Positions 6,003-24,000 of a stretch of 24,000 nucleotides of DNA are shown piece after piece. The stretch comes from Sporosarcina sp. 6E9. Lineage in GTDB: Bacteria; Bacillota; Bacilli; Bacillales_A; Planococcaceae. The position numbers and the translations under genes were made by a program. Numbering within the stretch: the stretch's first letter is position 1; each line of letters begins with the position of its first letter. The notes below the pieces were generated by a model. That model saw only the letters and a program-made list of their open reading frames with translations. It had not been told where the DNA came from and made no database searches. Location: the NCBI RefSeq assembly GCF_017921835.1, contig NZ_JAGEMN010000001.1, positions 155,874-179,873 of the forward strand, written 5' to 3'.

Positions 6003-6012
6003 TTGATGTACA

Positions 6013-6875: not shown

Positions 6876-7026
6876 CTTGTTAATGCCTCCTATGATAATG
6901 AATATTATACCTCATGTAGGTTATGCGAGATGAAGGGGGAGTGTTAGTATTCATAGGAAGTTGCCATCATTGATAAGTGTCGGAAAATACTCTATATTTA
7001 AAGAGAGTCATTAGAGGAGGGATACC

Positions 7027-7251: not shown

Positions 7252-7262
7252 TGGTTGGATGA

Positions 7263-7295
7263 AGAATGGCTTAGATATAGGCTGTTCTTTTTTTA
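7263..7295 (+). terminator. probable rho-independent terminator
   Basis: Stem agaatggc (7263-7270) / gctgttct (7281-7288), with 2 G-U pairs, followed by T7 (7289-7295). Confidence 0.5.
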
Positions 7296-7586
7296 TACTT
7301 AATAATAAATTTATCTGCAGTAGAATCAAACTAGCATAAGTTAATATTATGTTTTTCAAAATTGTTATGGATACGAACAGTAATTGGAAATTCCCTCAAG
7401 CATCTTTTTAGTGTTGCTTATAAATAATTACGATCAATTTTTTTGAATTATCAATGTTGTGTTACAACAGGCTTAAGAAATGGACATAGTAATACCATAG
7501 GGGAAAGGTTTAATTAAATCAGGTACTAAGCACGATGAAGAGATGAAGCGAAAGGAAGGAGTAGAATGATTTAAACAAAAAGAGAT

Positions 7587-8853: not shown

Positions 8854-8878
8854 TAGAGTTGAGGAGATGATTTTTATT

Positions 8879-10366
8879 ATGATAAATTCATTAAAGATAA
8901 TTAATCGTGATCATATTCGAAATGTAGAATTGCTTAATCTTAGCAAAATAAATATCTTTTGTGGTAAAAATAACGCAGGTAAAACCACAATTTTAAATAC
9001 TTTATCGGGTGGATCTGAGAAATTTATGTTGGGGGAAGAATATTCTTTTGATGAAGTATGGTCTTTTTTTGTTAAAGTTAATACTAAAGCAAGAGAGGAG
9101 TTACAAGACGAAGATTATTGGAGTGATAATTTATTAGAAGAATATTACTCTTCTCTTTATTTAATACTAGAGGAATATAATAAACCTTTTTATTTTATTG
9201 ATGATTTGCTTATACTAACGCAACAAGTATTTATTGAAAATAAAGAAGAAGGACTATATGAAACTATATATAAAGTTATACAAGAAATTATTGGACAATA
9301 TGACATTTTCCCTTATTTAGAACCAGATAATATAATTTCTATTCCTGCAAATAGGTTTATAGAACCGAGAGTAAATTATAGTACTCAACAAAATGAGATT
9401 AAACCAACTGGTGAGGGAATTGTATCGAAAGTCTTTTTTATGAAAAATCAATTAGCAGGTACGCCAGAATTAATAGCATATCTTAGAATGAAAGACCAAT
9501 TTAAATTTATTTGTGATGGGTTTGATTTTGATATTATTCAAAATGGTGATGGAACTCTAAACCTAATGTTTACTAATCCATCTGGAGATTGGCTTAATGC
9601 CGAAAAATATGGTTTAGGATTACGTGATTTGTTAATAATTTTGTACTTTGCAAATAGCATTGACAATAGTAATGTCATTCTTATTGATGAAGTAGAAACG
9701 CATTTACATCCAGATTTACAAAGGAAGTTATTACATACCTTAAGGGAAAGTAGTAAACAGTTTTTTATTACTACACATTCCAATATATTTTTAGATAGTA
9801 CTTTCGTAAATAAAATATTTCATGTTACTTTTGATAATCAGATAAATATTGTTGATGCAACAAGTAGAAGTGGGTTGCTTAATGATTTAGGATTCTCTGT
9901 TTCAGATAATTTAACTTCTGATTTAATTATCCTCTGCGAGGGTCCAACAGATAAGCCGGTAATTGAAGAGTTTTTATATAAGTTTGATTTAATGCAAAAC
10001 TATAATATTAAAATATGGCCATTAGGAGGAGACATCATGGATCAACATGATCTTACGGTATTTAGTGAATCCTATAAAATTATTGGCTTAATTGATTTGG
10101 ATCCAGGAAGTGGGGTTATTAGGCAGCGTTTTGTTGACAATTGTACTGATAATAATATACCAGTACATAGATTAAAGAGATATGCTATTGAGAACTACTT
10201 TACGATTGAAGCATTAAGAAAGGTTTTTAAAGGACAAATAAGTCAAGATATTAGTACAATAGACACTACTATAAAATTGGAAGATCAAATAGGGATAAAT
10301 CCTAAGAAGAACAATAGAAAAATCGCAAATAACATGAACGTTGCAGATATCGAGGGTACTGATTAA
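8879..10366 (+). CDS. OLD-family-like nuclease: an ABC-type (AAA_15/AAA_21-like) ATPase fused to a TOPRIM (OLD/DUF4435-like) domain
   Basis: Walker A is GKNNAGKTT (8963-8989), the signature-like region is YGLGLRDLL, the Walker B is VILIDEVETHLHP (9674-9712), and ITTHS follows. The C-terminal TOPRIM motifs are LCEGPTDKPVIE (within 9920-9952), IGLIDLDPG and RYAIENYF. The ORF opens at 8867, but that ATG directly abuts the RBS, so the ATG at 8879 (12 nt after gaggag) is the likelier start. Confidence 0.8.
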   Translation: MINSLKIINRDHIRNVELLNLSKINIFCGKNNAGKTTILNTLSGGSEKFMLGEEYSFDEVWSFFVKVNTKAREELQDEDYWSDNLLEEYYSSLYLILEEYNKPFYFIDDLLILTQQVFIENKEEGLYETIYKVIQEIIGQYDIFPYLEPDNIISIPANRFIEPRVNYSTQQNEIKPTGEGIVSKVFFMKNQLAGTPELIAYLRMKDQFKFICDGFDFDIIQNGDGTLNLMFTNPSGDWLNAEKYGLGLRDLLIILYFANSIDNSNVILIDEVETHLHPDLQRKLLHTLRESSKQFFITTHSNIFLDSTFVNKIFHVTFDNQINIVDATSRSGLLNDLGFSVSDNLTSDLIILCEGPTDKPVIEEFLYKFDLMQNYNIKIWPLGGDIMDQHDLTVFSESYKIIGLIDLDPGSGVIRQRFVDNCTDNNIPVHRLKRYAIENYFTIEALRKVFKGQISQDISTIDTTIKLEDQIGINPKKNNRKIANNMNVADIEGTD

Positions 10367-10367
10367 G

Positions 10368-10815
10368 TTTCTCTTCGCCGCGGGCAACGGCTTTATTGAT
10401 ACGTATCTCGCCAGTTGCAAAGTTCATACCCCTCCACATAAGTGCCAGACCCTCACCCTCACTCTTTCGCATATCAGAATACGCAAGTAAATGAAAGAGA
10501 AAACATGGAGTCGTAAATTCTTTTCTTGTTTATGACAATCTAGGAACTCGATTAGCTGTTCCTTTGTATAGAAGTTTTCATAAATTAACTCATCAAATGT
10601 GATACTTTTTTATCGATTGGAATTTCAACCAGATCAATTGGATTTATATTGATATCAATATAACTTCAGCTCATAGCAAACGTAATAACCTTCGCAACAT
10701 ATGATTTAACCGTCATGAACCCCTTTAGTTTCATATAGTTATTTAAATTAGTTATATCATTTTCTCCTCTTATCAAATTTCGTATTACATTTACCCACTT
10801 ACACTTATTTCAAAA
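10368..10815 (-). pseudogene. tyrosine recombinase (phage-integrase family) remnant, 3'-truncated, with a nonsense codon and frameshifts
   Basis: The minus-strand frames give ...ITNLNNYMKLKGFMTVKSYVAKVITFAMS*SYIDININPIDLVEIP, then KSITFDELIYENFYTKEQLIEFLDCHKQEKN, then FLFHLLAYSDMRKSEGEGLALMWRGMNFATGEIRINKAVARGEEK. These match the integrase core-binding pattern and the first catalytic-domain pattern (..TG.R.sE...L.W.di......i.i.k). The later catalytic residues are absent because the frame runs into the 3' end of the 8879-10366 gene. Confidence 0.5.
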
Positions 10816-11496
10816 TAAGTTTAAAATGAATAATTTAAAATAAAAGTGAGTCACAACAATCAGTTGCTTCTGATAAGGAGTTCTGGGTTGTTACACTCAT
10901 TTCAGGAAATTCAATACTTTACACTTATAATAAATATACTTAGCCAGAATTTAACGCATTCAAATCTACATCTATGTTATAGCAATAAAACACTTATTTT
11001 AAAATGGGTGTTTTTCGCTTAGCCTCCTCGCTCCTCACCTCCAAAACCAAAAGAATAGCTATGCTCATAAATAAACCAAGTAAACACGGGCGCATTATAT
11101 AAAGATACAGACGGGTTAATATTTGGTTCAATAAAAAGGATAAAATACTACAATTCAATCCTTCGGCGTATAAGTTTTTACTTAAATTTAAGAAATGATT
11201 TTCAGGTTCATTTTATCCCCTGGAATTTTGTACATAGTGACAACCTCTGGAATTTTGTTTTGACGACGCCTTCGTTAAATAGCAGGAAAGGCAGCAAACT
11301 CCCATCAAATTAGAATATCAATAAATTATTCCAACGAAACCAGATGTTAACAAACGTGGCGGATCAAACCATCCGTGAAGAGTTTACGAAGTATAAGAAA
11401 ATTACGGTTGAGAAGTATGGCTACGCTGAAATAAATGGATTCCAAAACGGCTGACCCCATAACTTAAATTTAGTTAGTTGCCATTAATCCGACACC

Positions 11497-11531
11497 AAAA
11501 AGCAGCACCTAAAATATGGTGCTGCTTTTTT
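11497..11531. terminator. bidirectional rho-independent terminator
   Basis: Stem aaaaagcagcacc (11497-11509) / ggtgctgcttttt (11518-11530) with an 8-nt loop. U-runs are available on both strands. It lies 12 nt beyond the stop of the minus-strand hydrolase gene. Confidence 0.8.
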
Positions 11532-11542
11532 CGAACGCTATT

Positions 11543-12826
11543 TTATTCATTAATAATAGATTCATAAACTGTATTCGCAATCGTTCTCGATAAAAGTCCT
11601 GTGCTTGAGTAAGAACCACTTGCTAAAGGACCGTTATTTTGTTTATTGGCTAATACAATGATTTGTAGATTGTTGACAGGGTCAAAGATGACTTGTGTTC
11701 CGGTAAAACCTGTATGGCCAAATGCTTGTCCAGAATGAAGATTGCCCATATACCAGGTTTGGTTTAGTTCCCAACCGTATCCTTGGCCGAATTGTTGAGG
11801 GGAAGTAAATTGATCGACAATCGCTTCATTATATAAGGAAACTTTTCCGTAACTGCCTTTGTTCAGCATCGTTTGACCGAGTACGGCTAAATCGCGCGCA
11901 GTTGAAAACAGACCGGCATGTCCTGCAACTCCTTGATTGGCATAAAAGCTATTTCCATCGTTTACTTCACCGATTAACGTATACTCTCTCCAATGCTTAA
12001 AGTCATCCGCATCTTCCTCGACGTAATAACCGAAGTTCGGATCATCTACCATTTTATATTCATATGGATTGCCCCATGAAGTGGCCGCAATTTTTTTGTT
12101 CGTTTTTTCTAGCGGGTTAAACATTGTATCTTTCATATTTAAAGGCTCGTAAATATTGTTTTCTAGATAGACATCCAATCGTTGTCCAGTAACTGCCTCG
12201 ATTACAAAACCAAGAGCCATATAGCTAAAATCACTATATTTGCGATTGGTGCCTGTCTCATATTCGAGCGGTAGTTCATTGATATAATCGAGTACTTCTG
12301 CTGGATTGGTTGCATGTAAGAAGGTCGGTGCCCAAGGTGTTAACCCAGATGTATGTGTGAGTAAATGTGCAATTTTCACTGCATCTTTTCCATTTTCCGC
12401 GAATTCGGGAATATATGTCGCAACCGGTTCGTGAATATCAATTACCCCTTCAGAAGCCAGTTTCATAATCCCTTGTGTTGTCCCCATGACTTTCGTCACC
12501 GATGCCAAATCAAAAATGGTCTTTTTCGTCATTTTTACAGGTTGCTGTAGTTTGTTGCCCATATCATAGAGTTGGGCATGTCCATATGCGGTTTCTTTGA
12601 CGATTTTATTGTCCTTTGCAACAAGGACGACAGCTCCTGGTGTAACCCCATTACGAATCGCATCTTCTACAATTTGATCGATTTCATTCAGTTTGTTTTG
12701 ATCCATCCCGACTGCATTTGGTGAACCTTGACTAAGTTTTTCTCCTAATTGTTTCGCACTGACCGGTGATGAGATAACAGCGGTCATTAAGAATAGGATA
12801 ATCGTACCGAAAACTAGTTTTCTCAC
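11543..12826 (-). CDS. secreted serine hydrolase of the beta-lactamase / DD-peptidase (class C-like) fold
   Basis: Signal peptide MRKLVFGTIILFLMTAVISSPVSA|K. S-x-x-K nucleophile motif in FDLASVTKVMGT, a YSD (Y-x-N-like) motif in RKYSDFSY, and HTGFTGT (the K/H-T-G box). GTG start 5 nt after ggaggag. Confidence 0.85.
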   Translation of the reverse strand: MRKLVFGTIILFLMTAVISSPVSAKQLGEKLSQGSPNAVGMDQNKLNEIDQIVEDAIRNGVTPGAVVLVAKDNKIVKETAYGHAQLYDMGNKLQQPVKMTKKTIFDLASVTKVMGTTQGIMKLASEGVIDIHEPVATYIPEFAENGKDAVKIAHLLTHTSGLTPWAPTFLHATNPAEVLDYINELPLEYETGTNRKYSDFSYMALGFVIEAVTGQRLDVYLENNIYEPLNMKDTMFNPLEKTNKKIAATSWGNPYEYKMVDDPNFGYYVEEDADDFKHWREYTLIGEVNDGNSFYANQGVAGHAGLFSTARDLAVLGQTMLNKGSYGKVSLYNEAIVDQFTSPQQFGQGYGWELNQTWYMGNLHSGQAFGHTGFTGTQVIFDPVNNLQIIVLANKQNNGPLASGSYSSTGLLSRTIANTVYESIINE

Positions 12827-12877: not shown

Positions 12878-12977
12878 TACAATATACCATATTCTGTAGA
12901 TTCATTACAAGTATAATCAGAATATTGTAAACATCCAAGCCATAGGATTAGGTTACATAGTAAGGGGGGATGTGAGC

Positions 12978-14009
12978 TTGTCGCGATTAGAAAAAAGACT
13001 TGAGTTAGCAAAGAAGGAACTTCGTCGATCGGTCATAGATATAAATGCTGAAATCAACGATAAAACAGAACTTCCTGAGGGCGTATTATTTTACGGCATT
13101 AAAGATACGGATCAGATTCCAGCCCTTTTCCTAAACAGGCTTAGTGCTCACAAACGATTTTGTTGGTTAACGACTGATAAAGCAGCCAATAAAGGAAGAG
13201 CGATTGATACGGATTTATTAAATCCTTTAACGTATCGCGTCATGACTGGTTCGACAAGTGGGGGTCCAGTCAATATTTTAAAAGGGATTACTGATTTTGC
13301 AATTGGCACGGATGGGGGTGGCTCAGTATTAGCTCCGGCGATTAGCTGTCAACTCCCATCGATTATGGCTGCGGGTTTAGGTTTACATGTCAAAGAAGAT
13401 AAAACCTCAACTGATGGCATTCAATTTATGGGCAGTATTGGGGTGATTGGAAAAAGTGTACCTTTGCTGAAACAAATCACTGAAATTATGTTGGCAAGAG
13501 AACTGGATACAGATGAGGACGAACCAATAACCATTGCCATTCCGCAAAAAGGAACTGTGATGCGTCCAGATGGCCAAGATATGCATGCGGTAATCATGAA
13601 TTATCTCAACCGAATTAAGTTAAAACACGTAACAATTAAAGAAGTGGATATGACGGGAATTGATGAACGAAAACGCGCCATTGTAACCTTGCAAACTTGT
13701 TTTGAAGAAGTAGACTTTGTCCTAACTTGTGAAGGACCTGTTGATGTCTACGGATATGGAGAGACAATTCCGCAACAGTTTGGTCAAGCGGGAAGAGAGT
13801 TGACCAACGATCACGGAAAATATTTAATACGCGCTGCAAATATGTGTAAAGCAACAGCGGTAACTATTCCAACGACTGATATAGCCAGTGCCTTGGTTAT
13901 TGTCGCAAAAAATGGTTTATCACATGGTGCAAAGGCCATTCACTTAGCTGAAAAGTTTGAACAAGTCATTGAACTCCCAGAAGTTTGGCGACGCTACTTT
14001 TTAGCGTAA
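12978..14009 (+). CDS. compact amidase-signature (AS) family protein
   Basis: TGSTSGGPVNILKGITDFAIGTDGGGSVLAPAISC parallels the AS consensus GGSSGG....(x).LGTDtGGSIRiPA. An upstream GIKD could supply the catalytic Lys. The ORF opens at GTG 12972, but TTG 12978 is better spaced from aagggggga. At about 343 aa it is much shorter than typical AS enzymes. Confidence 0.6.
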   Translation: MSRLEKRLELAKKELRRSVIDINAEINDKTELPEGVLFYGIKDTDQIPALFLNRLSAHKRFCWLTTDKAANKGRAIDTDLLNPLTYRVMTGSTSGGPVNILKGITDFAIGTDGGGSVLAPAISCQLPSIMAAGLGLHVKEDKTSTDGIQFMGSIGVIGKSVPLLKQITEIMLARELDTDEDEPITIAIPQKGTVMRPDGQDMHAVIMNYLNRIKLKHVTIKEVDMTGIDERKRAIVTLQTCFEEVDFVLTCEGPVDVYGYGETIPQQFGQAGRELTNDHGKYLIRAANMCKATAVTIPTTDIASALVIVAKNGLSHGAKAIHLAEKFEQVIELPEVWRRYFLA

Positions 14010-14046
14010 GAGATAGAAAACAGGGGTGTGAGAAAGGAGCTGCTAC

Positions 14047-14979
14047 ATGAGCAGAATATGGGAAGTTTTATTCTCGAAAAATGGTCTAGCAGCTAAGCAA
14101 ATTGCTGAAATGCTAATACCCATTCATGAAGGTGAACGGATCCCACGTGTAGAGGATTTTGAGAACCAACTTTCAATTGGAAGGGGCACAGTTCAAGGGG
14201 CTTTGAAAGTGCTAGAAAGTTTACATGCCGTTCAATTAGAGTCACGTGGTCACTTGGGGACGTTTGTCGTTAAAAGAAATCTACATTTGTTAAAAGAGAT
14301 TGCTGGTGTTGGAGATCTTATGGGCGCCATGCCTTTACCATATTCGACTTTATATGAAGGTTTGGCTACGGGATTAATCGAGGTCTCAGACCAATTAATG
14401 AACGGTATCAATCTCGTATACATGCGTGGATCAAAGCAACGAGTAGAGGGGTTAAAATCCCGTAGATATGATTTCATAGTGCTATCTCAATTAGCCGCCG
14501 AAGAAGAAATGAAGCATGATGATCAGTTGACGATCGCCTTGGATTTTGGCCCAAACACGTATGTATCCTCACATAAGGTGTTTCTAGCCGATCCAAAGAA
14601 AAATGCAATCGAGCGTGGCATGCGCGTAGGCATTGACTACTCCTCTTTTGACCAGTTAAAAATTACGTTACTTGAATGTGAAGATATCGACGTCGAACTT
14701 GTCTCGATTAACTATATGCAACTATTTGAAAATCTACAAAATGGCACATTGGATGCGGCCGTTTGGAATTCCGATGAAAGCCGATCTGTAAAAGCATTTA
14801 AACAAGTTAACTTTCAATCTCAACAAGCAAGAGAGATTGCCAAGAAAGCGACTACATCGGTTATCTTAATTGAAAAGCAAAGGGAAGAGGTTTTCAATTA
14901 CTTTTCGCAACTAGATAAAGAGGAAGTAAAGCAGATTCAACAGTTGGTTGTTGACCATGAAAAAATACCGCATTATTAA
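14047..14979 (+). CDS. yhfZ: YhfZ-like transcriptional regulator (GntR-type winged helix-turn-helix plus a ligand-binding-like C-terminal domain)
   Basis: Winged-HTH segment IPRVEDFENQLSIGRGTVQGALKVLESLHAVQLESRGHLGTFVV. Its 310 aa compares with ~300 aa for E. coli YhfZ. It sits at the head of the yhf-type gene set. RBS aaaggag. Confidence 0.65.
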   Translation: MSRIWEVLFSKNGLAAKQIAEMLIPIHEGERIPRVEDFENQLSIGRGTVQGALKVLESLHAVQLESRGHLGTFVVKRNLHLLKEIAGVGDLMGAMPLPYSTLYEGLATGLIEVSDQLMNGINLVYMRGSKQRVEGLKSRRYDFIVLSQLAAEEEMKHDDQLTIALDFGPNTYVSSHKVFLADPKKNAIERGMRVGIDYSSFDQLKITLLECEDIDVELVSINYMQLFENLQNGTLDAAVWNSDESRSVKAFKQVNFQSQQAREIAKKATTSVILIEKQREEVFNYFSQLDKEEVKQIQQLVVDHEKIPHY

Positions 14980-15002
14980 GACATAATTTTTGGGAGGCAG
15001 CT

Positions 15003-15422
15003 ATGACTAAAGATGAGTTACGAACAAGACTGACAATATTACGCGATCAACATGTCATTAACGAACGGGCTTACGAAGTAACAAACATGGCTTTTGATAA
15101 GCTAATCGAATGCCTACAAGTAGACGATGTGACACAAGCAGAAATGTTGTTTACGCATTTACCAACAGCACTCACAAGAATTTCACAAGGTGAAGATGTT
15201 GAAGGGCCGTCAGCGGAAATGCTGGTAGAAATTAAACAATCCGAATACTATCCAATCGCTAGACAACAAGTTGACTATATTGAGAGCGTTTGGAAGGAAG
15301 CGATACCAAAAGCAGAAATTGATTTTTTATTATTACATTATACAAATGTCATTACGATAAACCAGGGAGGCAATCAGAATGAAAATTGTTGTTGGAGGAC
15401 AAATGGAAAAGAAAGAAATTGA
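15003..15422 (+). CDS. yhfY: YhfY-like small PRD-domain protein
   Basis: Assigned mainly from size (139 aa versus ~120) and from its position between the yhfZ-like and yhfU-like genes. RBS gggagg. Its 3' end overlaps the next gene by 44 nt. Confidence 0.5.
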   Translation: MTKDELRTRLTILRDQHVINERAYEVTNMAFDKLIECLQVDDVTQAEMLFTHLPTALTRISQGEDVEGPSAEMLVEIKQSEYYPIARQQVDYIESVWKEAIPKAEIDFLLLHYTNVITINQGGNQNENCCWRTNGKERN

Positions 15423-15738
15423 ACGAATGATTAAGGAGTTTGATCCATCGATTGAAACGACGATCAAATCTGATGTCGAAGCTGCAATGGCACTTAAAAC
15501 GGGACAAGTTGATTATTATTTAGGGGCTTGTCATACAGGTGGTGGCGGTGCATTAGCGATGGCCATTGCCATCATTGGCCGAAATCAATGTGAAACCGTA
15601 TCGATGCCAGGAAAACAGCCAGTAGAAGAAAAAGTGATCGAGGCAGTTAATGAGGGTAAAAAAGCATTTGGATTCACAGGGGATCATGCAAATCAAGCTG
15701 TTCCAATGATTTTACGAGCCATTAAGAACAAAAACTAA
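15379..15738 (+). CDS. yhfU: YhfU-like protein (DUF2620)
   Basis: A 119-aa protein with MKIVVGG...DVEAAMALKTGQVDYYLGACHTGGGGALAMAIAIIG, the Gly-rich GAC.TG.G.AL core I associate with YhfU/DUF2620. RBS gggagg, 7 nt before the ATG. Confidence 0.65.
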   Translation: MKIVVGGQMEKKEIERMIKEFDPSIETTIKSDVEAAMALKTGQVDYYLGACHTGGGGALAMAIAIIGRNQCETVSMPGKQPVEEKVIEAVNEGKKAFGFTGDHANQAVPMILRAIKNKN

Positions 15739-15766
15739 CTAAATTCAACCAGGGGGAGTGGGAAAA

Positions 15767-17059
15767 ATGGAAACATTGTTTATCGTTTTAATAGGTGCAG
15801 TAGCAGCCGTATTGGCTAACCAAAACATTGCTGTCTTTAATGATGGGTTACGTCCAATCGTTTCTGAACATGTTCAAGGAAATTTAAAGCGGAGAGATTT
15901 AGGTCTAACTGCATTTGCTATGAGTTTTGGATTGGTAATTGGATTTGGGATTCCTTTTACCATCACGGCGAGTATTATTTTAGTGCATAGTATTTTACTA
16001 GGTACTGATATCATTGGTTTAGTTGCCCCAAAAAATAAGTGGGGGAGTACAGTTGCGGCCATTGTCGGCGGTCTGTACGGGTGGGGTTTGTTAGCTGGGT
16101 TGGAAGGCTTTGTGAAATTATTTGAACACTTACCTGTTAACTTCTTAGATGCCATGGGCGAAGTTGGAACCCCAGTTGTGGTTACATTTATGGCTTTTCC
16201 AGCAATTGCTGTTGCGATGCAGTTTAGTATTCGTAAAGGTGTTTTAACCTTTGTAGTCGCGGCACTTGTTCGTCAGTTAGCTGTGTTTGTGAATACAGGT
16301 GGTTTTTTATCAATTGGTGGCAATGCGATTACGTTAAACCAAGAAGGTATGGCGTTAATTGTTGGAATGATTTTCCTATTTACTTATGCCATTAAAGAAA
16401 AAACGACTGATGGTTCAACAATTGATTTAGCAGCTGTTTTTGGTGATAAAGTGAAAGCGATCCGTAAAAATGTTGTTTTCTTCATGATCATTGGTGCGTT
16501 AATCGCGGGTGCGACGAACCTCTTATTAATGGCAGGAGATCCGATATCTTTAAGCTTACTTGCAGATGGGCAAAAGAATGATGCTGGGATTGCAGCAGCG
16601 GCTAGGGCCATTGGCTTTATCCCGTTAATCGCAAGTACAGCCATTGTAACGGGTGTTTATAGTCCAGTTGGATTTACACTCATTTTTGTTGTGGGTCTTT
16701 TCTCTCCAAATGTATGGATTGCGGTTATTGTCGGTGCCATCGTTATCTTTGGAGAAGTAATCCTGTTAGGATCAATTGCACGTTTCCTAGACAAATATCC
16801 TGGCGTTCGTAATTCTGGTGATAACATTCGTAATGCGATGACAAAAATTCTTGAAGTTGCTTTATTAATCGGTGGTGCGAATGCAGCTAACCTCATTGCA
16901 CCTGGATTTGGTTTCTTCTTTATCGCAGGATTCTATCTATTGAACGAAGTAGCAGGACGTCCAATCGTGCGTATGGCAATTGGACCAATTGGCGCGATTG
17001 CGGTTGGAATTATCGCGAATATCTTAGTGTTGCTAGGCATTATGGCAATTCCATCATAA
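15767..17059 (+). CDS. yhfT: YhfT-like polytopic membrane protein (putative transporter)
   Basis: About 430 aa and highly hydrophobic, with many predicted TM helices. The N-terminal ...ANQNIAVFNDGLRPIV resembles YhfT. The ORF opens at GTG 15758, but ATG 15767 is 9 nt after aggggga. Confidence 0.65.
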   Translation: METLFIVLIGAVAAVLANQNIAVFNDGLRPIVSEHVQGNLKRRDLGLTAFAMSFGLVIGFGIPFTITASIILVHSILLGTDIIGLVAPKNKWGSTVAAIVGGLYGWGLLAGLEGFVKLFEHLPVNFLDAMGEVGTPVVVTFMAFPAIAVAMQFSIRKGVLTFVVAALVRQLAVFVNTGGFLSIGGNAITLNQEGMALIVGMIFLFTYAIKEKTTDGSTIDLAAVFGDKVKAIRKNVVFFMIIGALIAGATNLLLMAGDPISLSLLADGQKNDAGIAAAARAIGFIPLIASTAIVTGVYSPVGFTLIFVVGLFSPNVWIAVIVGAIVIFGEVILLGSIARFLDKYPGVRNSGDNIRNAMTKILEVALLIGGANAANLIAPGFGFFFIAGFYLLNEVAGRPIVRMAIGPIGAIAVGIIANILVLLGIMAIPS

Positions 17060-17100
17060 AACCAGTCTATGTCTTAATCGCATCTTAGGAGTGAATGATA

Positions 17101-18015
17101 ATGATTCAAACTGTACAAGGGAAAATTAAAAAAGAGGATTTAGGAATATGTGCGGCTCATGAGCATCTTTCTATTGATTTATCAAGAATCAAAAATGATC
17201 CAGATACAATTTTAGATGATGAAGCGGGCATGGCGTCTGAATTAGCGCATTTTCACCGTGCTGGTGGGCGCTCTATGATTGAGTTAACCAATGAAGGTAT
17301 GGGTCGTGACACTGAACGGCTCAAACGTCTTAGTGAACAATCAAACATTCATATCATCACATGTACCGGTTTTTATAAAGATCCATTTATCCCAGAATTT
17401 GCACAAGGTTGGGACCGTGATCAATTTGCCGCGCATTTCATCCGTGAGATTGAACATGGGATTGGGGACACGGGAATTTTTCCGGGAATCATTGGTGAAG
17501 TAGGTACAAGTCACAATGAAATTAAACCGGTAGAAAATGAATTAATCATCGGTGCTGGCATGGCCGCTTTAAAAACAGGTGTAACTGTGACCACCCATAC
17601 GACCCTGGGAACGATGGGAATTGAGCAAATCGATATGTTGTTTAAACTAGGTGTCCCAAAAGAACAAATTATTATTGGGCACCAAGATTTAAACGCCAAT
17701 AAAGATGAAGTGCTTGAGGTGCTGCAATCCGGCGCTTATATCGGATTTGACACGATTGGAAAGAATAATTATAGACCTGATGAAGAACGCATTGCATTTT
17801 TACTAGACTTTATCGAACGAGGATATCATCAGCAAATTCTCTTATCGGCAGATTTAACGAGAAAATCTCATTGGCGAAAGCATGATGGACCTGGTTATGA
17901 CCTTGTTTTAAGGGATTTTATACCTGCATTAAAACAAAATGGCGTAACAGATGAAATGATTGATGATTTTCTCATCCATAATCCAGCAAATGCATTAGCA
18001 ATAAAGGAGCGGTAA
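17101..18015 (+). CDS. php: phosphotriesterase homology protein (Php/YhfV; amidohydrolase superfamily, binuclear metal site)
   Basis: The ligand pattern reads CAAHEHL (HxH), IIGEVGTS (a Glu rather than the carbamylated Lys, as in Php), VTTHT, IIGHQD and LLSADL (Asp). About 305 aa. ATG 17101 is better spaced from aggag than ATG 17095. Confidence 0.8.
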   Translation: MIQTVQGKIKKEDLGICAAHEHLSIDLSRIKNDPDTILDDEAGMASELAHFHRAGGRSMIELTNEGMGRDTERLKRLSEQSNIHIITCTGFYKDPFIPEFAQGWDRDQFAAHFIREIEHGIGDTGIFPGIIGEVGTSHNEIKPVENELIIGAGMAALKTGVTVTTHTTLGTMGIEQIDMLFKLGVPKEQIIIGHQDLNANKDEVLEVLQSGAYIGFDTIGKNNYRPDEERIAFLLDFIERGYHQQILLSADLTRKSHWRKHDGPGYDLVLRDFIPALKQNGVTDEMIDDFLIHNPANALAIKER

Positions 18016-18016
18016 T

Positions 18017-19153
18017 ATGGCTTATGATTTCTCTAAGTTAAAATATGCAGAATCAGTTATTCCGTCCAGGAGTATTCAAGAGGCACAGGATTTACAATTT
18101 AAGTTAGTCGATTGTATGCGTAAGCATTTTACCGGCGATCAATTTTTGTCGCTTGGTGATTTGGGCGTCGTTCCTGGATTACAACGACCAGCGCAAACAA
18201 AACGAGTTGAGGAAACTTTAGCAGACTTTTTTGGTACAGAAAGCGCGGCTTTAGTGAGAGGTGCAGGTACTGGTGCCATCCGTACAATCTTAAGTACATT
18301 GGTTGAACCAGGTGATAAGATGTTTATTCATCAGGCACCTGTTTATTCAACAACGGTAGAAACCTTTCGTTCACTTGGTATTGAAACGAAGCCTGTTGAT
18401 TACAATGATTTGGCTGCGGTTGAAGAAACCTTGAAAAAGGATACGACATGTAAAGTGTTTTACATTCAACATGCGAGACAACAACCGACAGATACGTATG
18501 ATCTTAAAGTGGTTATTCATTTAGTCAAAATGGTGCGTCCGGATGTCACCATCGTCAGTGATGACAATTACTGCGCCTTGAAAGCATATGGAATTGCTGC
18601 CGAATACGGTGCGGATTACTCTACATTCTCTGGGTTCAAGGTGCTTGGACCCGAGGGAATTGGTGTCATTGCAGGAAAAAAAGAAGCAATCTCATTATTA
18701 CAACATCGAAATTACTCTGGTGGTGGACAAGTTCAAGGTTACGAAGCGATGGAATTATTGCGGATGATGACATTCGCACCCGTTATGCTTGCGATACAAA
18801 ACGAACAAGTCCAAGAGGTTTGCCAACGATTAAATGAAGGCGAGATTGCTGGTGTCGAATCAGCCTATATGGTCAATGCGCAGTCAAAAGTAGTCATTCT
18901 TGAGTTGGATGAGCCAATTGCGCAACAGGTGATTCAAGCAAGCAATGAATTAGGTGCAGCGACACATCCCGTTGGCGCGGAATCGAAATATGAAATCCTA
19001 CCAATGATTTATCGGGTGTCAGGTACATTTCTTGCGGCCCAACCAAGGTTGAAAGAATATGGAATTAGGATTAATCCGATGAAATCAGGTGCTTCGACCG
19101 TATTAAACATCCTAGATAAAGCCATTAAACAAGTAAAAGAAGCGCGCGCATAA
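18017..19153 (+). CDS. yhfS: YhfS-like PLP-dependent enzyme (fold type I)
   Basis: Its 378 aa compares with ~360 for YhfS. A candidate PLP-lysine lies in a YSTFSGFKVLGPEGIG (S-x-x-K) context, and VSDDNY is an Asp-containing cofactor motif. The gene is translationally coupled: the php stop is at 18013-18015 and this ATG is at 18017. Confidence 0.65.
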   Translation: MAYDFSKLKYAESVIPSRSIQEAQDLQFKLVDCMRKHFTGDQFLSLGDLGVVPGLQRPAQTKRVEETLADFFGTESAALVRGAGTGAIRTILSTLVEPGDKMFIHQAPVYSTTVETFRSLGIETKPVDYNDLAAVEETLKKDTTCKVFYIQHARQQPTDTYDLKVVIHLVKMVRPDVTIVSDDNYCALKAYGIAAEYGADYSTFSGFKVLGPEGIGVIAGKKEAISLLQHRNYSGGGQVQGYEAMELLRMMTFAPVMLAIQNEQVQEVCQRLNEGEIAGVESAYMVNAQSKVVILELDEPIAQQVIQASNELGAATHPVGAESKYEILPMIYRVSGTFLAAQPRLKEYGIRINPMKSGASTVLNILDKAIKQVKEARA

Positions 19154-19177
19154 TATAGAGTACGGGAGGCTACTTCC

Positions 19178-20338
19178 ATGTTTTTGGACGTTACAAAACG
19201 AAGAAATTCCGAATTAATTAAAACGGGCGTTACGCTACATCAGGCGGGGGAAATCCCGCCTAACACCTATATCATTGATGTAGATATTTTGCGAGAAAAT
19301 GTAAGGAAATTAGTTCAAACTGCAGATCAAGCTATGATGGAATTATATTTAATGTCAAAACAATTAGGCCGTTTTCCTGAGATAGCAAAAATCATTGTGG
19401 AAGAAGGCATTACAAAAGCTGTGGCTGTAGATTTTGATGAAGGAAAAATATTGGCTGATCACGGAATAGCAATTGGGAATATTGGCCATTTAGTTCAACC
19501 TGGAAAACATCAGTGGGCAGAGGTATTAAGCTGGAAACCTGAAGTGGTCACGATTTTTTCGTATGAACGAGCGAAACAACTTTCTAATGCAACTGAACGA
19601 TTAGGCGTTAGCCAAGACATCATCCTGAAAGTATATGATGAACAAGATATGCTATATCCCGGTCAAGAAGGCGGTATCTTATTACAAAATTTAGCTGAAG
19701 AAATCGATAGCATTCAGCAACTTCCAGGTGTGGATATTGTGGGGCTTACAACATTTCCTAATCTACAACTAAATGCTACCAAGACGGAAATGGTACCAAC
19801 CCATAACTTAACAACGTTACTTGAAGCTAAAAAAGTCTTGATTCAAAAAGGAATTGCAATTAAGCAAATCAACGGGCCAAGCGGAACAAGTTGTGAAACG
19901 ATTCCATTTTTAGCTGCGCAAGGTATTACGCATAGTGAACCGGGTCACGGGCTGACAGGGACAACCCCACTTCATGCCTTTAAAGATCTACCGGAAAAAC
20001 CAGCGATTATTTATGTAACGGAAGTGTCGCATCAGGTTCGTGATAGCTATCAAGTCATTGCGGGTGGCTATTATGGTCGCTCCAATATGGAGGGCTGTTT
20101 AGTCGGAAGTGATCCAAATTCTATCTTCAATCAATATGCAAAGGCCGAACAGTTGAATCCCGACTCCATCGACTATTATGGACTCATTAATCATCAGGAT
20201 GACTTTTCGATCGAGATTGGAGACACCGCGATATTTGCCTTTCGCACACAAATCTTTGTCACCCGGGCTCATGTTGCTTTAGTCGAGGGAATCCAAAAAG
20301 GTCAACCTAAATTGATACATTTTGAAAGGAAGTGGTGA
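19178..20338 (+). CDS. yhfX: YhfX-like protein (alanine-racemase N-terminal-domain / fold type III PLP family)
   Basis: Its 386 aa compares with ~387 for YhfX. The N-terminus MFLDVTKRRNSELIKTGVTLHQAGEIPPNTYIIDVDIL fits my recollection of YhfX. Operon position also fits. RBS gggagg. Confidence 0.6.
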   Translation: MFLDVTKRRNSELIKTGVTLHQAGEIPPNTYIIDVDILRENVRKLVQTADQAMMELYLMSKQLGRFPEIAKIIVEEGITKAVAVDFDEGKILADHGIAIGNIGHLVQPGKHQWAEVLSWKPEVVTIFSYERAKQLSNATERLGVSQDIILKVYDEQDMLYPGQEGGILLQNLAEEIDSIQQLPGVDIVGLTTFPNLQLNATKTEMVPTHNLTTLLEAKKVLIQKGIAIKQINGPSGTSCETIPFLAAQGITHSEPGHGLTGTTPLHAFKDLPEKPAIIYVTEVSHQVRDSYQVIAGGYYGRSNMEGCLVGSDPNSIFNQYAKAEQLNPDSIDYYGLINHQDDFSIEIGDTAIFAFRTQIFVTRAHVALVEGIQKGQPKLIHFERKW

Positions 20339-20342
20339 CATC

Positions 20343-21575
20343 ATGGCTAAAATGATGTTACTCGTGATCGACAGTTTTGGGATTGGTGCAATGGATGATT
20401 GTAAAGATTATGTAGCGACAGACTGTCAGGCGATGACTTATCAACATATTCGAGAGATTAAAAAAGAAAAACTCCATATCCCAACGATGTATTCTCTCGG
20501 ACTTGGTGCACTTGTCGATGGCAAATCTGAGCCAGGGAATGCTTTTGGGTATTCAAAATTAGCCCATCACGGCGCTGATACGTATTTAGGACATCAGGAG
20601 ATTGCCGGGAGCTGTCCGAAAAACTCAACTAAACGATTGATGAAGGATATCCATCAAGACATGAAACAAGCATTAGAAGAAAGCGGTTATGAAGTACGCT
20701 ATCCAATTGAAGGGAGTCCAATCCTTTTAGTGAATGAAGCCGCTGTTGTCGCAGATAATTTAGAATCAGCTGTTGGAAATATAATTAATATAACAGCTGA
20801 TTTTAAAAAGATGCCTTTCAGAGAACTGAAAAAACTAGGAAATGTCGTCCGTAAAAACGTAGATACGTCTAGAGTAATCGCTTTTGGTGGCCCTCACACG
20901 TCGATTGAAAAAATACTTTCTTGTGTTGAGGAGACCGATCAAAACCAATGGGGCGTAGACACCCCAAAAGCAGGTGTCTATGGAAAAGGCTACGAGGTCT
21001 ACCATATGGGTTATGGAGTAGAAGTAGAAAAACAATTCCCAATGATAGCGGCAAAACATGGACTACCTGTCTATCGTCTCGGCAAAACAGCTGATGTTCT
21101 GCACGGTAAGGGCGTTGCAGAGCCGATTGTCGATACGACCCAGTTATTAAAGCGAGTAGCCGAAGCATACCATCAAGAAAAAAATGATGCTGCATTTTTA
21201 ATTAATGTTCAAGAAACGGACTTAGCAGGTCATTCCGAAGATGTTGATTGGTATGCCGCTTTACTGAACGAAGTCGATAGTTGGTTGACGGATTTTATCC
21301 CAACGATGGTAGCAGATGATCTACTCATTATCATGGCTGACCACGGTAATGATCCTACCATAGGACACTCCAACCATACGAGAGAATACGTCCCAATTCT
21401 GATTGTCGGTGAAAAGGTGAAAAAAGCGAATATTGGTTTACGCAACACAATGTCAGACATCGGCGCGACATTGTGTGACTTTTATGGATTGCCCATGACT
21501 GCAGAAGGAACTAGTTTTTTAGATGAAATTATCGATCGGAAGGAATTTATGATTTCGTGTAAAGTGAGTGAATGA
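20343..21575 (+). CDS. yhfW: YhfW-like phosphopentomutase-family metalloenzyme (alkaline-phosphatase superfamily)
   Basis: LLVIDSFGIGAMDD, ETDLAGH, IIMADHGNDPT and HTREYVPILIVG are DeoB-type phosphomutase metal and active-site motifs. The likely start is ATG 20343, 4 nt after the upstream stop. The ORF-track TTG at 20322 lies inside yhfX. Confidence 0.75.
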   Translation: MAKMMLLVIDSFGIGAMDDCKDYVATDCQAMTYQHIREIKKEKLHIPTMYSLGLGALVDGKSEPGNAFGYSKLAHHGADTYLGHQEIAGSCPKNSTKRLMKDIHQDMKQALEESGYEVRYPIEGSPILLVNEAAVVADNLESAVGNIINITADFKKMPFRELKKLGNVVRKNVDTSRVIAFGGPHTSIEKILSCVEETDQNQWGVDTPKAGVYGKGYEVYHMGYGVEVEKQFPMIAAKHGLPVYRLGKTADVLHGKGVAEPIVDTTQLLKRVAEAYHQEKNDAAFLINVQETDLAGHSEDVDWYAALLNEVDSWLTDFIPTMVADDLLIIMADHGNDPTIGHSNHTREYVPILIVGEKVKKANIGLRNTMSDIGATLCDFYGLPMTAEGTSFLDEIIDRKEFMISCKVSE

Positions 21576-21604
21576 CAGTGGGTTACAATAATATACTTCT
21601 ATTC

Positions 21605-21641
21605 AAAAGACGATTTCTATCATTTAAAGAAATCGTCTTTT
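21605..21641. terminator. rho-independent terminator closing the operon
   Basis: Perfect 13-bp stem, aaaagacgatttc (21605-21617) / gaaatcgtctttt (21629-21641), with an 11-nt loop. Confidence 0.75.
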
Positions 21642-21733
21642 GGTGCGCTTTGAATTCAATGTTTACAACAGCTTAACCCGTCACTTAATGGATATATTTT
21701 TTATCATTGGTACTTCATCTAAATTTTTTATGT

Positions 21734-23320
21734 TTATTTGCTTTTAATAATTCTTTTAATAATATCATGATTCTCTTCTTTGGAATTTAAGGTAAGCTCA
21801 AAGCACTTTTTTGATTCGCTATAATATGCAGTGACACTCATATCATCTAGTAATATATTACTTCTAATATCAGTAAGAGCATCTACTAAAGAAATATGTT
21901 CCTGTTTTTTATGGCTATAGTCATTTAACCCGGTTTTATATTCTGCTTCTAAAGTGATATATCTGCGATCAAAATAATCATCAGCTTTGATGGGGTTAAA
22001 TTTTCTGCGATACAAACTACCGTTTAAATATCGCAAATCAGGATAGAAATCCTCTTCTATATATTCGGCATCCGAAATACCATTACTAATATAATAAACC
22101 TGACAATTAATCTGATTGTTAATTTTCCATCTGACTGTTAATCGAATTATTTCAGAGTTGTAATAATAGGATTGATAGCTTTTACCTGAATTCGATAGAT
22201 CGAAAAAAAGTTGTAATTCATTTTCCGTTATAGGCTCATCTATTTTCAAAATCTCATCTTTTAGTGGGAAAGAGTCATATTTTCTGAATGGATAAATTAA
22301 TCCGTGCTTATTAAATGACTTTTTTGTAAAATATAATGATTCGTATTCTGCTTCTAAACTATTCATCTTCTCTTTAATGCGTTCGATTTCTTTGATTTCA
22401 GTTATACAAAAGTTTAAATAATCAAACTCATAGTTTTTATTTTTAAAATAAGTAGCTAGATACTTTTTTGCTGGAATGTCATTTTCAAAAATAACCTTTT
22501 TCATTCTACCAAGAAGCAGTTTATTTTCACCGACACTAGTCTTAGAAAGTGATGATATAATTGCTTCTTCCAGGTTACTTATTTGGTTAGAGTATTCGGT
22601 GTATAAGTCATTTATTCTTTTATAGTCTTGATCATATCTCTCTGAGGGAAATTCTAATTCAATTTTTAATGATTCATATTCACTTAAGATGTTAGGACTA
22701 ATCTCTTCTGATTCAGAAATTAAAAATGACTTTAAAAAGTTGAATCGGGAGTATCCGAAGTCGGTAAGATTTTTCAAATTGTTGAACTCCCAAATTTTTA
22801 ATTTTACCGAATCCCCATTTGTTTTGTTATAACCATCCTTAGTATCAGTGAGAGATAGTAATTGATTAAAGCCGAAAAAACTACTCAAAAACTCTTGAAT
22901 AAGCTGTCTTTCAAGACTAATGGACTCATCTTGATCTGTATTTTTAATTATTACCATTTTTAAGTCAGATAATTGACAGTTATTATCTACCATGTATTTG
23001 AATATTTTACATGATTTATAGGAACCTTCATAAAAAGGAATCGTGTTCCTGAAAAAATATCTGTAGTACTCATTATAGGAGAGGCGATTAAGTGCCAATA
23101 TTTCTTTTTTATGTTCTTTCCATCTTTTTTGAAAGTTATTAGTTCTACCAATATAGATAGGCAGCACGGAAGATGAAGTGAAATTATCTACATAAAGAAG
23201 ATATACTCCTGATTTTTTATTTTTTGTAAAGTTATTAACGTGATTATTTCTTCTTAGATTAATCAATTCCAGTACTTTTCTTTTAATAACGTTAAACGTT
23301 TCAGGTACTTCATCATTCAT
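21734..23320 (-). CDS. GIY-YIG nuclease-domain protein with a large uncharacterised C-terminal region
   Basis: GVYLLY-x10-PIYIGRTNNFQKRWKEH ... SLERQLIQEFLSSFFGFNQ supplies GIY, YIG, Arg, His, Glu and Asn in canonical GIY-YIG order (nt 22862-23218). The remaining ~375 aa are rich in coiled-coil-like segments and have no motif I can place. The ORF opens at 23503, but an RBS (aagggg, 23330-23335) 9 nt before ATG 23320 (MNDEVPE...) marks the likelier start. Confidence 0.75.
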   Translation of the reverse strand: MNDEVPETFNVIKRKVLELINLRRNNHVNNFTKNKKSGVYLLYVDNFTSSSVLPIYIGRTNNFQKRWKEHKKEILALNRLSYNEYYRYFFRNTIPFYEGSYKSCKIFKYMVDNNCQLSDLKMVIIKNTDQDESISLERQLIQEFLSSFFGFNQLLSLTDTKDGYNKTNGDSVKLKIWEFNNLKNLTDFGYSRFNFLKSFLISESEEISPNILSEYESLKIELEFPSERYDQDYKRINDLYTEYSNQISNLEEAIISSLSKTSVGENKLLLGRMKKVIFENDIPAKKYLATYFKNKNYEFDYLNFCITEIKEIERIKEKMNSLEAEYESLYFTKKSFNKHGLIYPFRKYDSFPLKDEILKIDEPITENELQLFFDLSNSGKSYQSYYYNSEIIRLTVRWKINNQINCQVYYISNGISDAEYIEEDFYPDLRYLNGSLYRRKFNPIKADDYFDRRYITLEAEYKTGLNDYSHKKQEHISLVDALTDIRSNILLDDMSVTAYYSESKKCFELTLNSKEENHDIIKRIIKSK

Positions 23321-23940
23321 ATTTATAATCCCCTTTAGAAGATTTATTTTTAATATCATTAAATTCCATTTTTGCGTATCCTTACAACACCCAGCGTGAT
23401 TATAATTGAAGCGCCATTGAACAAGTTTTAAAACCACGGTTAGTTCTTGAAGTGCATATTCGTTAGAAGTATCAGTCTCATACTCGTCTATTCGCTCGTG
23501 CATTTTTTATTGGCCTGTGATTAAGTATTAATTGATTTTGGGATAGGCATAGTCTTCTTTCACTTTTGGAACCTTCTTACTGATTGTAGCATGATTTATG
23601 TCGATTCGTTAGACTATTAAGTATATATTCAGTAGGAAAGACTATGTGCTTAAAGAATTAGAAAGTAAATCGTTTCCAAATAAAATGAATGGAGTTATGG
23701 TTCATTGGCATGATTGTATAATAAAGAGACAGAATAAAATATATTCAAACATTGTTTTTTACTTAATGCTGGTTTTGGTATTAGTGCGCTCTTATACAGT
23801 GAGAACAGTAACCGTTCAAAATGTAGATTTAACACCATATTGTGAAGTAGGGCGAGCAGGTAACGAATTTATTATTTAATTAGCACTTCGTTCATCTGAC
23901 TTATAAATGAGAAATACTTTTTTTCTTAGGGGGATATACA

Positions 23941-24000
23941 TTGCGAGAGAAGGCCGGTTGGGAATTAAAAGAAGGTTCAACAACTTACGGGAATGTTTCA
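23941..24000 (+). CDS. start of an unidentified gene (partial; runs off the window)
   Basis: RBS taggggga, 6-nt spacer, TTG at 23941, then an open frame (M)REKAGWELKEGSTTYGNVS to the window edge. Only 20 codons are visible. Confidence 0.3.
   Translation, partial: MREKAGWELKEGSTTYGNVS

Follow-up and report, generated by a model that had tools for sequence, protein, structure and literature searches.

What is the function of a solitary, AT-rich gene whose product starts as a nuclease and continues into a long tail that resembles no known protein family? The question is raised by an open reading frame (ORF) in 24,000 nucleotides of DNA from Sporosarcina sp. 6E9 (contig NZ_JAGEMN010000001.1), a stretch that was analysed as a whole and is here denoted the window. 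The first-pass annotation, made from the letters alone, had described the product as an orphan, horizontally acquired GIY-YIG nuclease, and had considered a defence or abortive-infection effector as well as a selfish endonuclease. With slightly more confidence than doubt, our sequence analysis favors an uncatalogued single-gene nuclease of defence, or of conflict between mobile elements, in which an effector, a scaffold and a degenerate exonuclease-like sensor would follow one another in one polypeptide.

The ORF spans 21734..23503 on the minus strand and has 589 codons in the ORF list of the window, as reported at first. The start at 23503 did not hold. In the family alignment the homologues all start where M62 of the 589-amino-acid reading is aligned, a ribosome-binding site (AAAGGGG) is located 9 nucleotides 5' of ATG 23320, and the NCBI product 'GIY-YIG nuclease family protein [Sporosarcina sp. 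6E9]' of 528 amino acids is 100% identical to the ORF from M62 on. Since homologue starts, ribosome-binding site and the start annotated by NCBI agree, we placed the start at ATG 23320, and residue numbers below refer to the 528-amino-acid protein unless stated otherwise. In DNA of such composition, 528 codons would stay open by chance with a probability of ~1e-21; the gene is real and intact. Its parts are:

21734..23320, minus strand: coding sequence of the 528-amino-acid GIY-YIG protein, stop codon TAA at 21734-21736 included
23330..23336, minus strand: ribosome-binding site AAAGGGG, read from the sequence
23321..23503, minus strand: in-frame upstream extension of 61 codons, without counterpart in the homologues or in the NCBI product, which starts at M62

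The extension is probably untranslated and likely holds the promoter and the 5' untranslated region. A promoter scan detected no convincing sigma-70-type site 5' of ATG 23320, and sites were overall fewer than in shuffled sequences. Further upstream on the strand of the gene (23504-24000) there is no ORF of at least 40 amino acids other than one of 47.

To describe the architecture of the protein, we used a full-length model obtained with AlphaFold2 (AF2) from the family alignment, which has a mean predicted local distance difference test score (pLDDT) of 82 and a predicted template modelling score (pTM) of 0.78. It shows three parts, the first of which is preceded by a short helical segment:

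23216..23320, minus strand: N-terminal helix, residues 1-35, ahead of the nuclease core (AF2 helix 7-22; conserved I20 and T32)
22841..23215, minus strand: GIY-YIG nuclease domain, residues ~36-160 (PF01541, conservation, Foldseek and PDB profile match)
22322..22840, minus strand: helical region, residues ~161-333 (YG(F/Y)xxFN element with G189, F193 and N194, then five long helices)
21737..22321, minus strand: C-terminal alpha/beta domain, residues 334-528 (family-specific; weak DnaQ/DEDDh, i.e. RNase H-like, fold)

Pfam identifies the nuclease as GIY-YIG (PF01541; residues 99-207 of the 589-amino-acid reading, E=6e-6, with a score of 26.9 bits where the cut-off is 22.6), and helix 7-22 ahead of it is modelled with pLDDT >90. 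All the hallmarks claimed at first are in place: GVYLLY, PIYIGRT, QKRW, KEH, SLERQ and GFNQ supply G38/Y40, Y56/G58, R66, H70, E137 and N152, and the elements that define the superfamily (GIY, YIG, Arg, His/Tyr, Glu, Asn) thus occur in their proper order. Conservation was calculated from an alignment of 81 full-length relatives. Residues G38, Y40, Y43, P54, Y56, G58, Q64, R66, H70, N78, K105, E137 and G150-F-N152-Q are 96-100% conserved, the GIY strand reading G38-x-Y40 and then Y43, and the YIG strand P54-x-Y56-I-G58, indicating that the catalytic machinery is intact and under selection. GIY-YIG is a one-metal phosphodiesterase fold with one active site per domain, and a double-strand break needs a second copy or sequential nicking.

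The closest solved relatives of the nuclease match marginally; it belongs to a divergent GIY-YIG clade. The best PDB match by sequence is I-TevI (1mk0; E=0.019), and the best by fold is R.Eco29kI (3mx4; Foldseek E=0.025, prob 0.97, template modelling (TM) score 0.31-0.34). PHROG 5123, 'homing endonuclease with GIY-YIG motif', matches the nuclease core with E=0.0026-0.06. I-TevI and PHROG 5123 being nearest to the core, the gene could be a selfish free-standing homing-type endonuclease, which would cut a site in gene-less genomes or prophages and be copied in by repair, with no benefit to the host. Half of the family moreover ends in a treble-clef zinc finger (sub-threshold DUF4379), and the I-TevI linker has a zinc finger too. 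However, the protein has no NUMOD, IENR1 or other helix-turn-helix DNA-binding module and is 2-3 times as long as known GIY-YIG homing enzymes. There is also no association with introns or inteins, and no intron, ribozyme or other Rfam family in the window. We regard the homing explanation as improbable, and return to it below where the genomic carriage of the gene bears on it.

The tail of ~376 residues has no sequence match in Pfam, NCBIfam, PHROG or the PDB, and in this sense its description as unassignable stands. At the level of fold the description fails, as the model resolves a helical bundle and an alpha/beta domain of weakly DnaQ/RNase H-like type. AF2 places the helices at residues 168-185, 209-223, 226-257, 263-279, 282-294 and 301-332 (pLDDT 62-89), and this region is the most variable and indel-richest part of the family alignment. 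The C-terminal domain modelled alone reached pLDDT 79 and pTM 0.79. When it was compared with the PDB by Foldseek, the top 14 matches were all DnaQ/DEDDh exonucleases (prob <=0.99, TM 0.33-0.38), including the Cas2-fused DnaQ 8h2f, the PolC exonuclease 2p1j, 3'hExo and ERI2. The BFVD library of viral structures returned the same class (DnaQ, DEDDh, YprB RNase H-like, Pol I exonuclease), and the strand order beta1-beta2-beta3, helices, beta4 fits the DnaQ fold. The models thus point consistently, if weakly, to a distant RNase H-like/DnaQ fold.

Sequence comparison did not add to this likeness. Nineteen tail domains searched against Pfam at E up to 10 gave no match, PF00929 included, and the tail profile compared with E. 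coli DnaQ gave a non-significant probability of 0.3%; that AEYKHGINDY... looks like the HGI(T/A)D segment in DnaQ is for this reason no more than an impression. The only invariant or nearly invariant residues of the domain are P344, L353, Y420, E460, G464 and N466, the last three forming the motif E460-x3-G464-x-N466. The DEDD tetrad, made up of the acids of Exo I (DxE), Exo II (D) and Exo III (H/Y-x-D), is absent, and no Exo II or Exo III acids are conserved in the 81 members. The Exo I motif of DnaQ is D-x-E-T-T-G; at the D-x-E position the family has (Y/F/D)-x-S, i.e. x-x-S-N, and the window protein reads FDLSNSG at this site. The domain stops ~30 residues past beta4, and the Exo III helix is apparently missing. 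The C-terminal domain is therefore probably not an exonuclease; lacking the DEDD catalytic tetrad, it is more likely to function in recognition than as a second nuclease. We picture it as a degenerate, truncated exonuclease-like fold that would serve binding rather than catalysis.

An N-terminal GIY-YIG domain, a helical part and a C-terminal RNase H-like fold follow one another in an order that superficially parallels UvrC, and fusions of DnaQ-like and GIY-YIG domains occur in Cho-like proteins. In addition, the sources of five homologues (P0005, P0008, P0021, P0022 and P0023) name them 'excinuclease ABC subunit C', and one homologue, at a locus with SIR2, DUF3800 and NERD genes, has Y-family polymerase and LexA-like genes in its vicinity. 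These points would be explained by a nuclease of DNA repair or DNA processing akin to UvrC/Cho, yet we consider this very improbable. Pfam finds no UVR, UvrC RNase H-like or HhH domain, not even when E values up to 10 are admitted for the tail, and no UvrC chain is among the PDB fold matches listed (50 per search, for the full-length model and for the C-terminal domain), the best match of the GIY-YIG domain being a restriction enzyme. The 'excinuclease' names are automatic transfers from the common GIY-YIG domain, and the gene is a sporadic accessory gene of low G+C content with pseudogenes and prophage carriage, outside core synteny.

The protein is not an orphan, as it had been called. A word-indexed search detected ~35 full-length relatives with 28-31% identity over ~85% of the length, from Cytobacillus, Evansella, Psychrobacillus, the B. 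cereus group, Heyndrickxia, Neobacillus, Priestia and Planococcus, and a genome scan at species level gave 27 loci, adding Oceanobacillus, Ornithinibacillus, Mesobacillus, some Clostridia, Streptococcus suis and Enterococcus. When the C-terminal domain alone was the query of an exhaustive hidden Markov model (HMM) search, 1.84 billion representative proteins yielded 107 clusters (50% identity). Hits with 400 amino acids or more all carry the family's N-terminal nuclease, save two N-terminally truncated fragments (P0041 and P0049), and the shorter hits are fragments from short contigs. Because the exhaustive search gave only these clusters, with the same architecture or as fragments, we conclude that the family is rare, confined to Bacillota and fixed in its three-part order of GIY-YIG nuclease, helical bundle and C-terminal alpha/beta domain. 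No other effector fused to the tail domain was detected in this search, and a broader profile run on the word-indexed database added three fragments. The novelty claimed for the tail is thereby supported, the C-terminal domain occurring only in the GIY-YIG plus helical architecture.

Family members range from 528 to 690 amino acids. About half of them are extended by a lysine-rich linker and end in a zinc ribbon (a sub-threshold match to the DUF4379 treble clef), both of which the window protein lacks. The zinc-ribbon tail of P0009 (residues 593-653) shares 47% identity with a segment of a hypothetical protein of the Staphylococcus phages OPT-SC01, PALS_1 and vB_SpsM-DH2 (~140 kb), which suggests that the ribbon of the longer homologues is a small shuffled zinc-finger module.

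Compared with the window protein, its closest relatives share 36-49% identity in the N-terminal nuclease part and 23-31% in the C-terminal tail. Several genomic copies are frameshifted (L017, L024 and L031) and others are split in two ORFs (L028 and L045). A conserved effector, a fast-evolving second domain, patchy spread and frequent decay are usually found together in immune or selfish genes. In the split copies, from Streptococcus suis (L028) and from a streptococcal element of IMG/VR (L045, 9631-11554), two adjacent ORFs of ~332 and 310 amino acids lie in different frames and part between the nuclease/helical part and the tail, either by a recurrent frameshift or as a genuine two-gene version. 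Another variation was seen in two Clostridia-like viral contigs of 26% G+C, where an ORF of 157 amino acids with 'KGIYILL', possibly a second small GIY-YIG protein in tandem, stands directly 5' of the family gene (L044 9501-9974; L042 706-1179).

To learn whether the gene belongs to a larger system, we compared the genes around its homologues. Pairs of closely related genomes excepted, all-against-all BLAST detected no neighbour family common to 24 loci, indicating that the unit is a single gene and supporting the stand-alone gene proposed at first. Nor is there a recurrent DNA methyltransferase across the 24 homologue loci, the surroundings of the window copy being visible only up to 24000. 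The neighbourhoods themselves are rich in genes of defence and mobility. Precomputed Pfam assignments at individual loci include:

Evansella cellulosilytica CP002394 (L001): type I restriction-modification (R-M), integrase, Abc3C-type CTD10/MC6/DUF2326
Second homologue locus: T5orf172, ScoMcrA-HNH, RES, HNH, resolvase, SLATT_5
Third homologue locus: SIR2 protein of 1151 amino acids, DUF3800, NERD
Fourth homologue locus: integrase, EVE-HNH, HSDR_N
Fifth homologue locus: Abi_2, PLD/NgoFVII
Sixth homologue locus: TIR, HNH, EVE-HNH, resolvase
Seventh homologue locus: NucS-like, resolvase, SLATT_5 with reverse transcriptase, HNH, Mrr

Scanning with PADLOC the 103 ORFs that lie at most three genes from a homologue at 20 further loci gave strong matches to LeoA/LeoBC (Eleos), SIR2-HerA, JetC, AriA, MADS components, PDC-S39 and PDC-M62. 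The same 20 loci hold four resolvases and one Mob relaxase, with housekeeping genes at the island edges. The defence systems named around homologues are thus type I R-M, SIR2-HerA, Eleos, Wadjet, PARIS-like, Abi_2, EVE-HNH and TIR. The first-pass annotation had proposed to test whether homologues are enriched in defence islands or prophages; in this qualitative survey they lie in defence islands, and their carriage by prophages is described below. For a homing enzyme this setting is unfavourable, as the insertion sites are mutually unrelated and the neighbours are defence genes with no recurring target gene among them.

Some neighbours recur. A serine resolvase and SLATT_5 are present in both L002 and L038, an EVE-HNH gene stands directly 3' of the homologue in L005 and L037, and homologous proteins of ~410 amino acids are encoded at L002 10692-11939 and L005 13751-14974; these recurrences hint at a common type of mobile defence island in Bacillaceae. 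The Evansella cellulosilytica island begins right after yycH-yycI-walJ-htrA-rlmH. The position next to rlmH is the site used by staphylococcal cassette chromosome (SCC) elements in staphylococci.

The neighbourhoods also bear on a variant of the defence explanation, in which the protein would act as a toxin-like or abortive-infection nuclease, degrading DNA indiscriminately once activated, or as an agent of exclusion between elements. That frameshifts often inactivate the gene suggests that it is costly to the host, modules of abortive type (Abi_2, RES, SLATT, TIR) are among the neighbours, and no cognate methyltransferase that would shield self DNA recurs at the homologue loci. On the other hand, there is no conserved small partner gene resembling an antitoxin, and CMoRE, a characterised single-protein GIY-YIG system, acts directly on phage DNA and not by abortive infection (PMC12923530). 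Nothing in the sequence separates the two outcomes, and we hold the toxin-like variant to be rather unlikely.

Carriage by phages was examined as well. Seven family loci are present in IMG/VR, and three of them (L039, L040 and L041) are temperate phages of the B. cereus group, with IEBH, phage 250 and vB_BceS_LY4 as relatives. In L039 the family gene lies in a cassette of 1.76 kb (9865-11626; 28% G+C) and is read in the opposite direction to the phage genes. The cassette stands in place of a 345-bp membrane-protein gene (phage 250 gp54, IEBH gp41) directly beside the ArpU late regulator, and its flanks are 78-83% identical to related Cecivirus-type phages. Such an arrangement is that of an accessory ('moron') gene expressed in the lysogen. 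Full-length homologues are absent from 50,697 sequenced phage genomes, where the only match is the zinc-ribbon tail of P0009 in the large Staphylococcus phages, and from 72,556 plasmids (PLSDB).

A sharply bounded cassette in Cecivirus-type prophages that is missing from close relatives at the same site is what a homing endonuclease could leave behind, and an AT-rich, often frameshifted gene is in keeping with the decay of selfish genes. Against the homing explanation, neither the sequenced phages nor the plasmids hold a full-length homologue, and the prophage copy runs opposite in strand to the phage operon, as a lysogen-expressed accessory gene does. The search for an intron or intein association and for a homing-type DNA-binding region in the tail, proposed at first as a test, returned no Rfam family in the window and no such Pfam module.

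Horizontal acquisition, as had been suggested, is supported for the copy in Sporosarcina sp. 6E9. This copy is convergent with an ordinary metabolic cluster of the yhfZ / PRD / DUF2620 / yhfT / phosphotriesterase / yhfS / yhfX / yhfW type, and the two are separated by one feature:

21604..21642, no strand assigned: perfect inverted repeat of 15 bp with a loop of 9 nucleotides, between the convergent genes (repeat search and sequence)

The hairpin is a probable bidirectional terminator, in agreement with the convergence on the operon terminator described at first. A contig from a related organism (L048; YhfW 91% identical) aligns to the window at 86% identity over 12880-21647 (L048 1-8780); the homology ends at 21647, five bases past the hairpin, and the L048 sequence beyond is unrelated to the GIY-YIG segment. 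G+C content is 28.5% in the gene and 40.8% in the operon (12972-21575). The end of the alignment and the deficit of 12 points place the gene outside conserved synteny; orthologues in core synteny, for which a check had been proposed, are not seen in the L048 alignment, and the sporadic distribution in Bacillota with pseudogenised copies agrees with horizontal acquisition. Like the checks on introns, on the tail and on the neighbourhoods of homologues, this outcome favours the interpretation given at first, as far as computation reaches. The local minimum of about 22% G+C noted at 22381 is correct (21.7% over 22381-22440), and so is the AT-rich contrast with the operon, whose 60-nucleotide lines vary from 27 to 55% (38-55% in the first-pass annotation). 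Direct or inverted repeats that could be insertion scars flank the gene only as short, chance-level ones, the terminator hairpin excepted.

Other features of the window concern its flanks. At 23941-24000 on the plus strand, AGGGGGA is followed after 6 nucleotides by TTG at 23941, and the ORF, which reads MREKAGWELKEGSTTYGNVS..., runs off the window; it is the probable start of a divergent gene. The closest named relatives of the operon are from Virgibacillus, Oceanobacillus and Cytobacillus (65-80% protein identity) and not from other Sporosarcina, and the yhf-type operon may itself be patchily distributed. L048 is a metagenome contig from ENA in which several operon genes are called in pieces, probably due to assembly frameshifts.

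Eleven kb away is a second gene of low G+C content (8867-10366, plus strand, 28.4% G+C), which encodes an ATPase of ATP-binding-cassette (ABC) type. In this protein of 499 amino acids, AAA_15/AAA_21 domains and a weak match to an OLD-like TOPRIM were detected; among solved structures, AriA (PARIS), PtuA (Septu/retron effectors) and an OLD-family nuclease are closest to it. Beside it, 10367-11542 holds no obvious partner ORF of at least 100 amino acids, and the protein may be a class-1 OLD or AriA-like defence ATPase that stands alone. Four ORFs of 118, 213, 161 and 102 amino acids (4843-8054), located between the ATPase gene and that of a TcaA-like membrane protein (2971-4353), gave no match in Pfam with E up to 0.001.

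How might the GIY-YIG protein work, if it is a defence or conflict nuclease? A stand-alone, horizontally mobile nuclease would act against invading DNA of phages or other mobile elements. The helical bundle of ~170 residues may be a scaffold for oligomerisation or spacing, and the truncated DnaQ/RNase H-like domain, having lost the DEDD carboxylates, may be the recognition module. The ligand of this module would be a phage protein or some feature of the foreign nucleic acid, for example a 3' end, a modified base or a replication intermediate, and its binding would position or license the GIY-YIG nuclease. The outcome would be direct degradation of the invader DNA, resembling type IV restriction as in CMoRE, or abortive infection; which of the two cannot be told from sequence. 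A more specific version is a new antiphage system with a catalytically dead, truncated DnaQ-like sensor of 3' ends, of replication or packaging intermediates, or of unusual nucleotides, whose helical scaffold licenses the nuclease. We mention this version as an unlikely elaboration.

Several points weigh against the defence explanation. The defence role is drawn from gene context alone, and the enrichment of defence genes near homologues is qualitative, as the survey had no matched control set. On one side the window gene adjoins a metabolic operon of ordinary kind, and on the other the window ends at 24000, where a partner gene is possible for this copy. PADLOC (2023) matches the family only over ~40-70 residues in the region of the GIY-YIG motifs. 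The DnaQ-like assignment is weak, given the low TM scores, the non-significant DnaQ profile and a domain that looks truncated before Exo III, and the roles of sensor and of oligomerisation scaffold are guesses.

If the defence explanation is right, the family adds to the single-protein systems that combine a nuclease with a sensor, which are compact, portable immune modules and potential tools; CMoRE has been proposed for mapping 5-hydroxymethylcytosine (5hmC). The family puts a third type of domain behind a GIY-YIG effector, namely an exonuclease-like fold without catalytic residues that has no sequence relatives elsewhere in the representative proteins searched. Should this domain be the specificity module, a fold of proofreading type would have been recruited for recognition in immunity, and would define the feature of foreign DNA that is read. 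The sensor of the more specific version above would discriminate self from non-self by a principle distinct from restriction based on sequence or on base modification. As the family is absent from the 2023 PADLOC profiles, the carrier genomes of Bacillus, Oceanobacillus, Sporosarcina, some Clostridia and Streptococcus are under-annotated for defence.

Finally, we compared the family with known systems. DnaQ/DEDDh exonucleases (2p1j, 8h2f, 3'hExo, ERI2) are the sole fold class recovered for the C-terminal domain, in two independent libraries, but membership among DEDD exonucleases is rejected for want of the tetrad and of PF00929, the likeness being at fold level only. UvrC/Cho proteins share the N-terminal GIY-YIG domain, and many family members bear their name by automatic annotation; their hallmarks are a UVR (UvrB-binding) domain, an RNase H-like domain for 5' incision with a DDH triad, and an (HhH)2 domain, and they are rejected by the Pfam results given above and by the accessory nature of the gene. 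The Slx1/URI type, in which a RING/PHD-type zinc finger comes after the GIY-YIG domain, is likewise rejected, since the window protein has no zinc-finger family and no Cys/His cluster in its tail. The first-pass annotation had denied that the protein is UvrC or Slx1 or carries NUMOD or IENR1, and the Pfam search agrees.

The homing enzymes I-TevI, I-BmoI and Seg give the best sequence matches to the catalytic core and resemble the family in being AT-rich, mobile and patchily distributed. They differ in length (~200-270 amino acids), and the window family is without NUMOD, IENR1, a helix-turn-helix tail or an intron; homing-type DNA-binding modules are rejected, none being found by Pfam at E up to 1 on the full protein or up to 10 on the 19 tails. 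R.Eco29kI/Cfr42I is the best fold match of the nuclease, and in both the GIY-YIG domain is enlarged by extra helices. The TM score is low, however, Eco29kI (211 amino acids) has no long helical and C-terminal region, and in contrast to Eco29kI-type enzymes no methyltransferase recurs beside the gene across the family loci.

Other single-gene defence systems with a GIY-YIG domain are PD-T4-3, PD-Lambda-1 and Uzume (10.1101/2024.10.26.620412). Uzume (UzuA) and PDC-S14 are single-gene or candidate defence proteins with a GIY-YIG-like domain and match the family weakly by HMM, the UzuA profile in 7 of 31 members only. The matches cover ~40-70 of 277-320 profile positions (E=1e-4 to 1e-8) and the rest is unrelated; in the absence of a full-length PADLOC profile match, membership is rejected. 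PADLOC gave no match to models named PD-T4-3 or PD-Lambda-1, and no CMoRE chain was found in the PDB profile searches. Literature searches for Uzume, for PDC-S14, and for GIY-YIG together with Bacillus, prophage or DnaQ retrieved no description of the family.

CMoRE is a tetrameric type IV restriction enzyme that joins a GIY-YIG nuclease to a C-terminal modified-cytosine sensor (PMC12923530). Its hallmarks are a GIYxY-YIG motif, an acidic autoinhibitory loop and the C-terminal modified-cytosine-binding domain, which binds the flipped-out 5hmC base in an SRA-like mode (PMC12923530). The window family differs from CMoRE in having its extra tyrosine at +3 instead of +2, about twice the length with a helical bundle of ~170 amino acids between the domains, a DnaQ/RNase H-like C-terminal fold where that of CMoRE is SRA-like in binding mode, hosts among Bacillota rather than Enterobacteria, and no sequence similarity beyond the GIY-YIG motif. 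Membership in CMoRE is rejected on the tyrosine spacing, the helical insert, the fold of the tail and the lack of a sequence match. What the family shares with CMoRE is an extra conserved tyrosine near that of GIY (G38-I-Y40-x-x-Y43 in the window protein, GIYxY in CMoRE) and, with CMoRE and PD-T4-3 alike, a general plan: a single gene in accessory DNA, with no recurrent methyltransferase partner, that encodes a GIY-YIG nuclease at the N-terminus and a separate C-terminal domain for recognition, a role that in the window family is putative.

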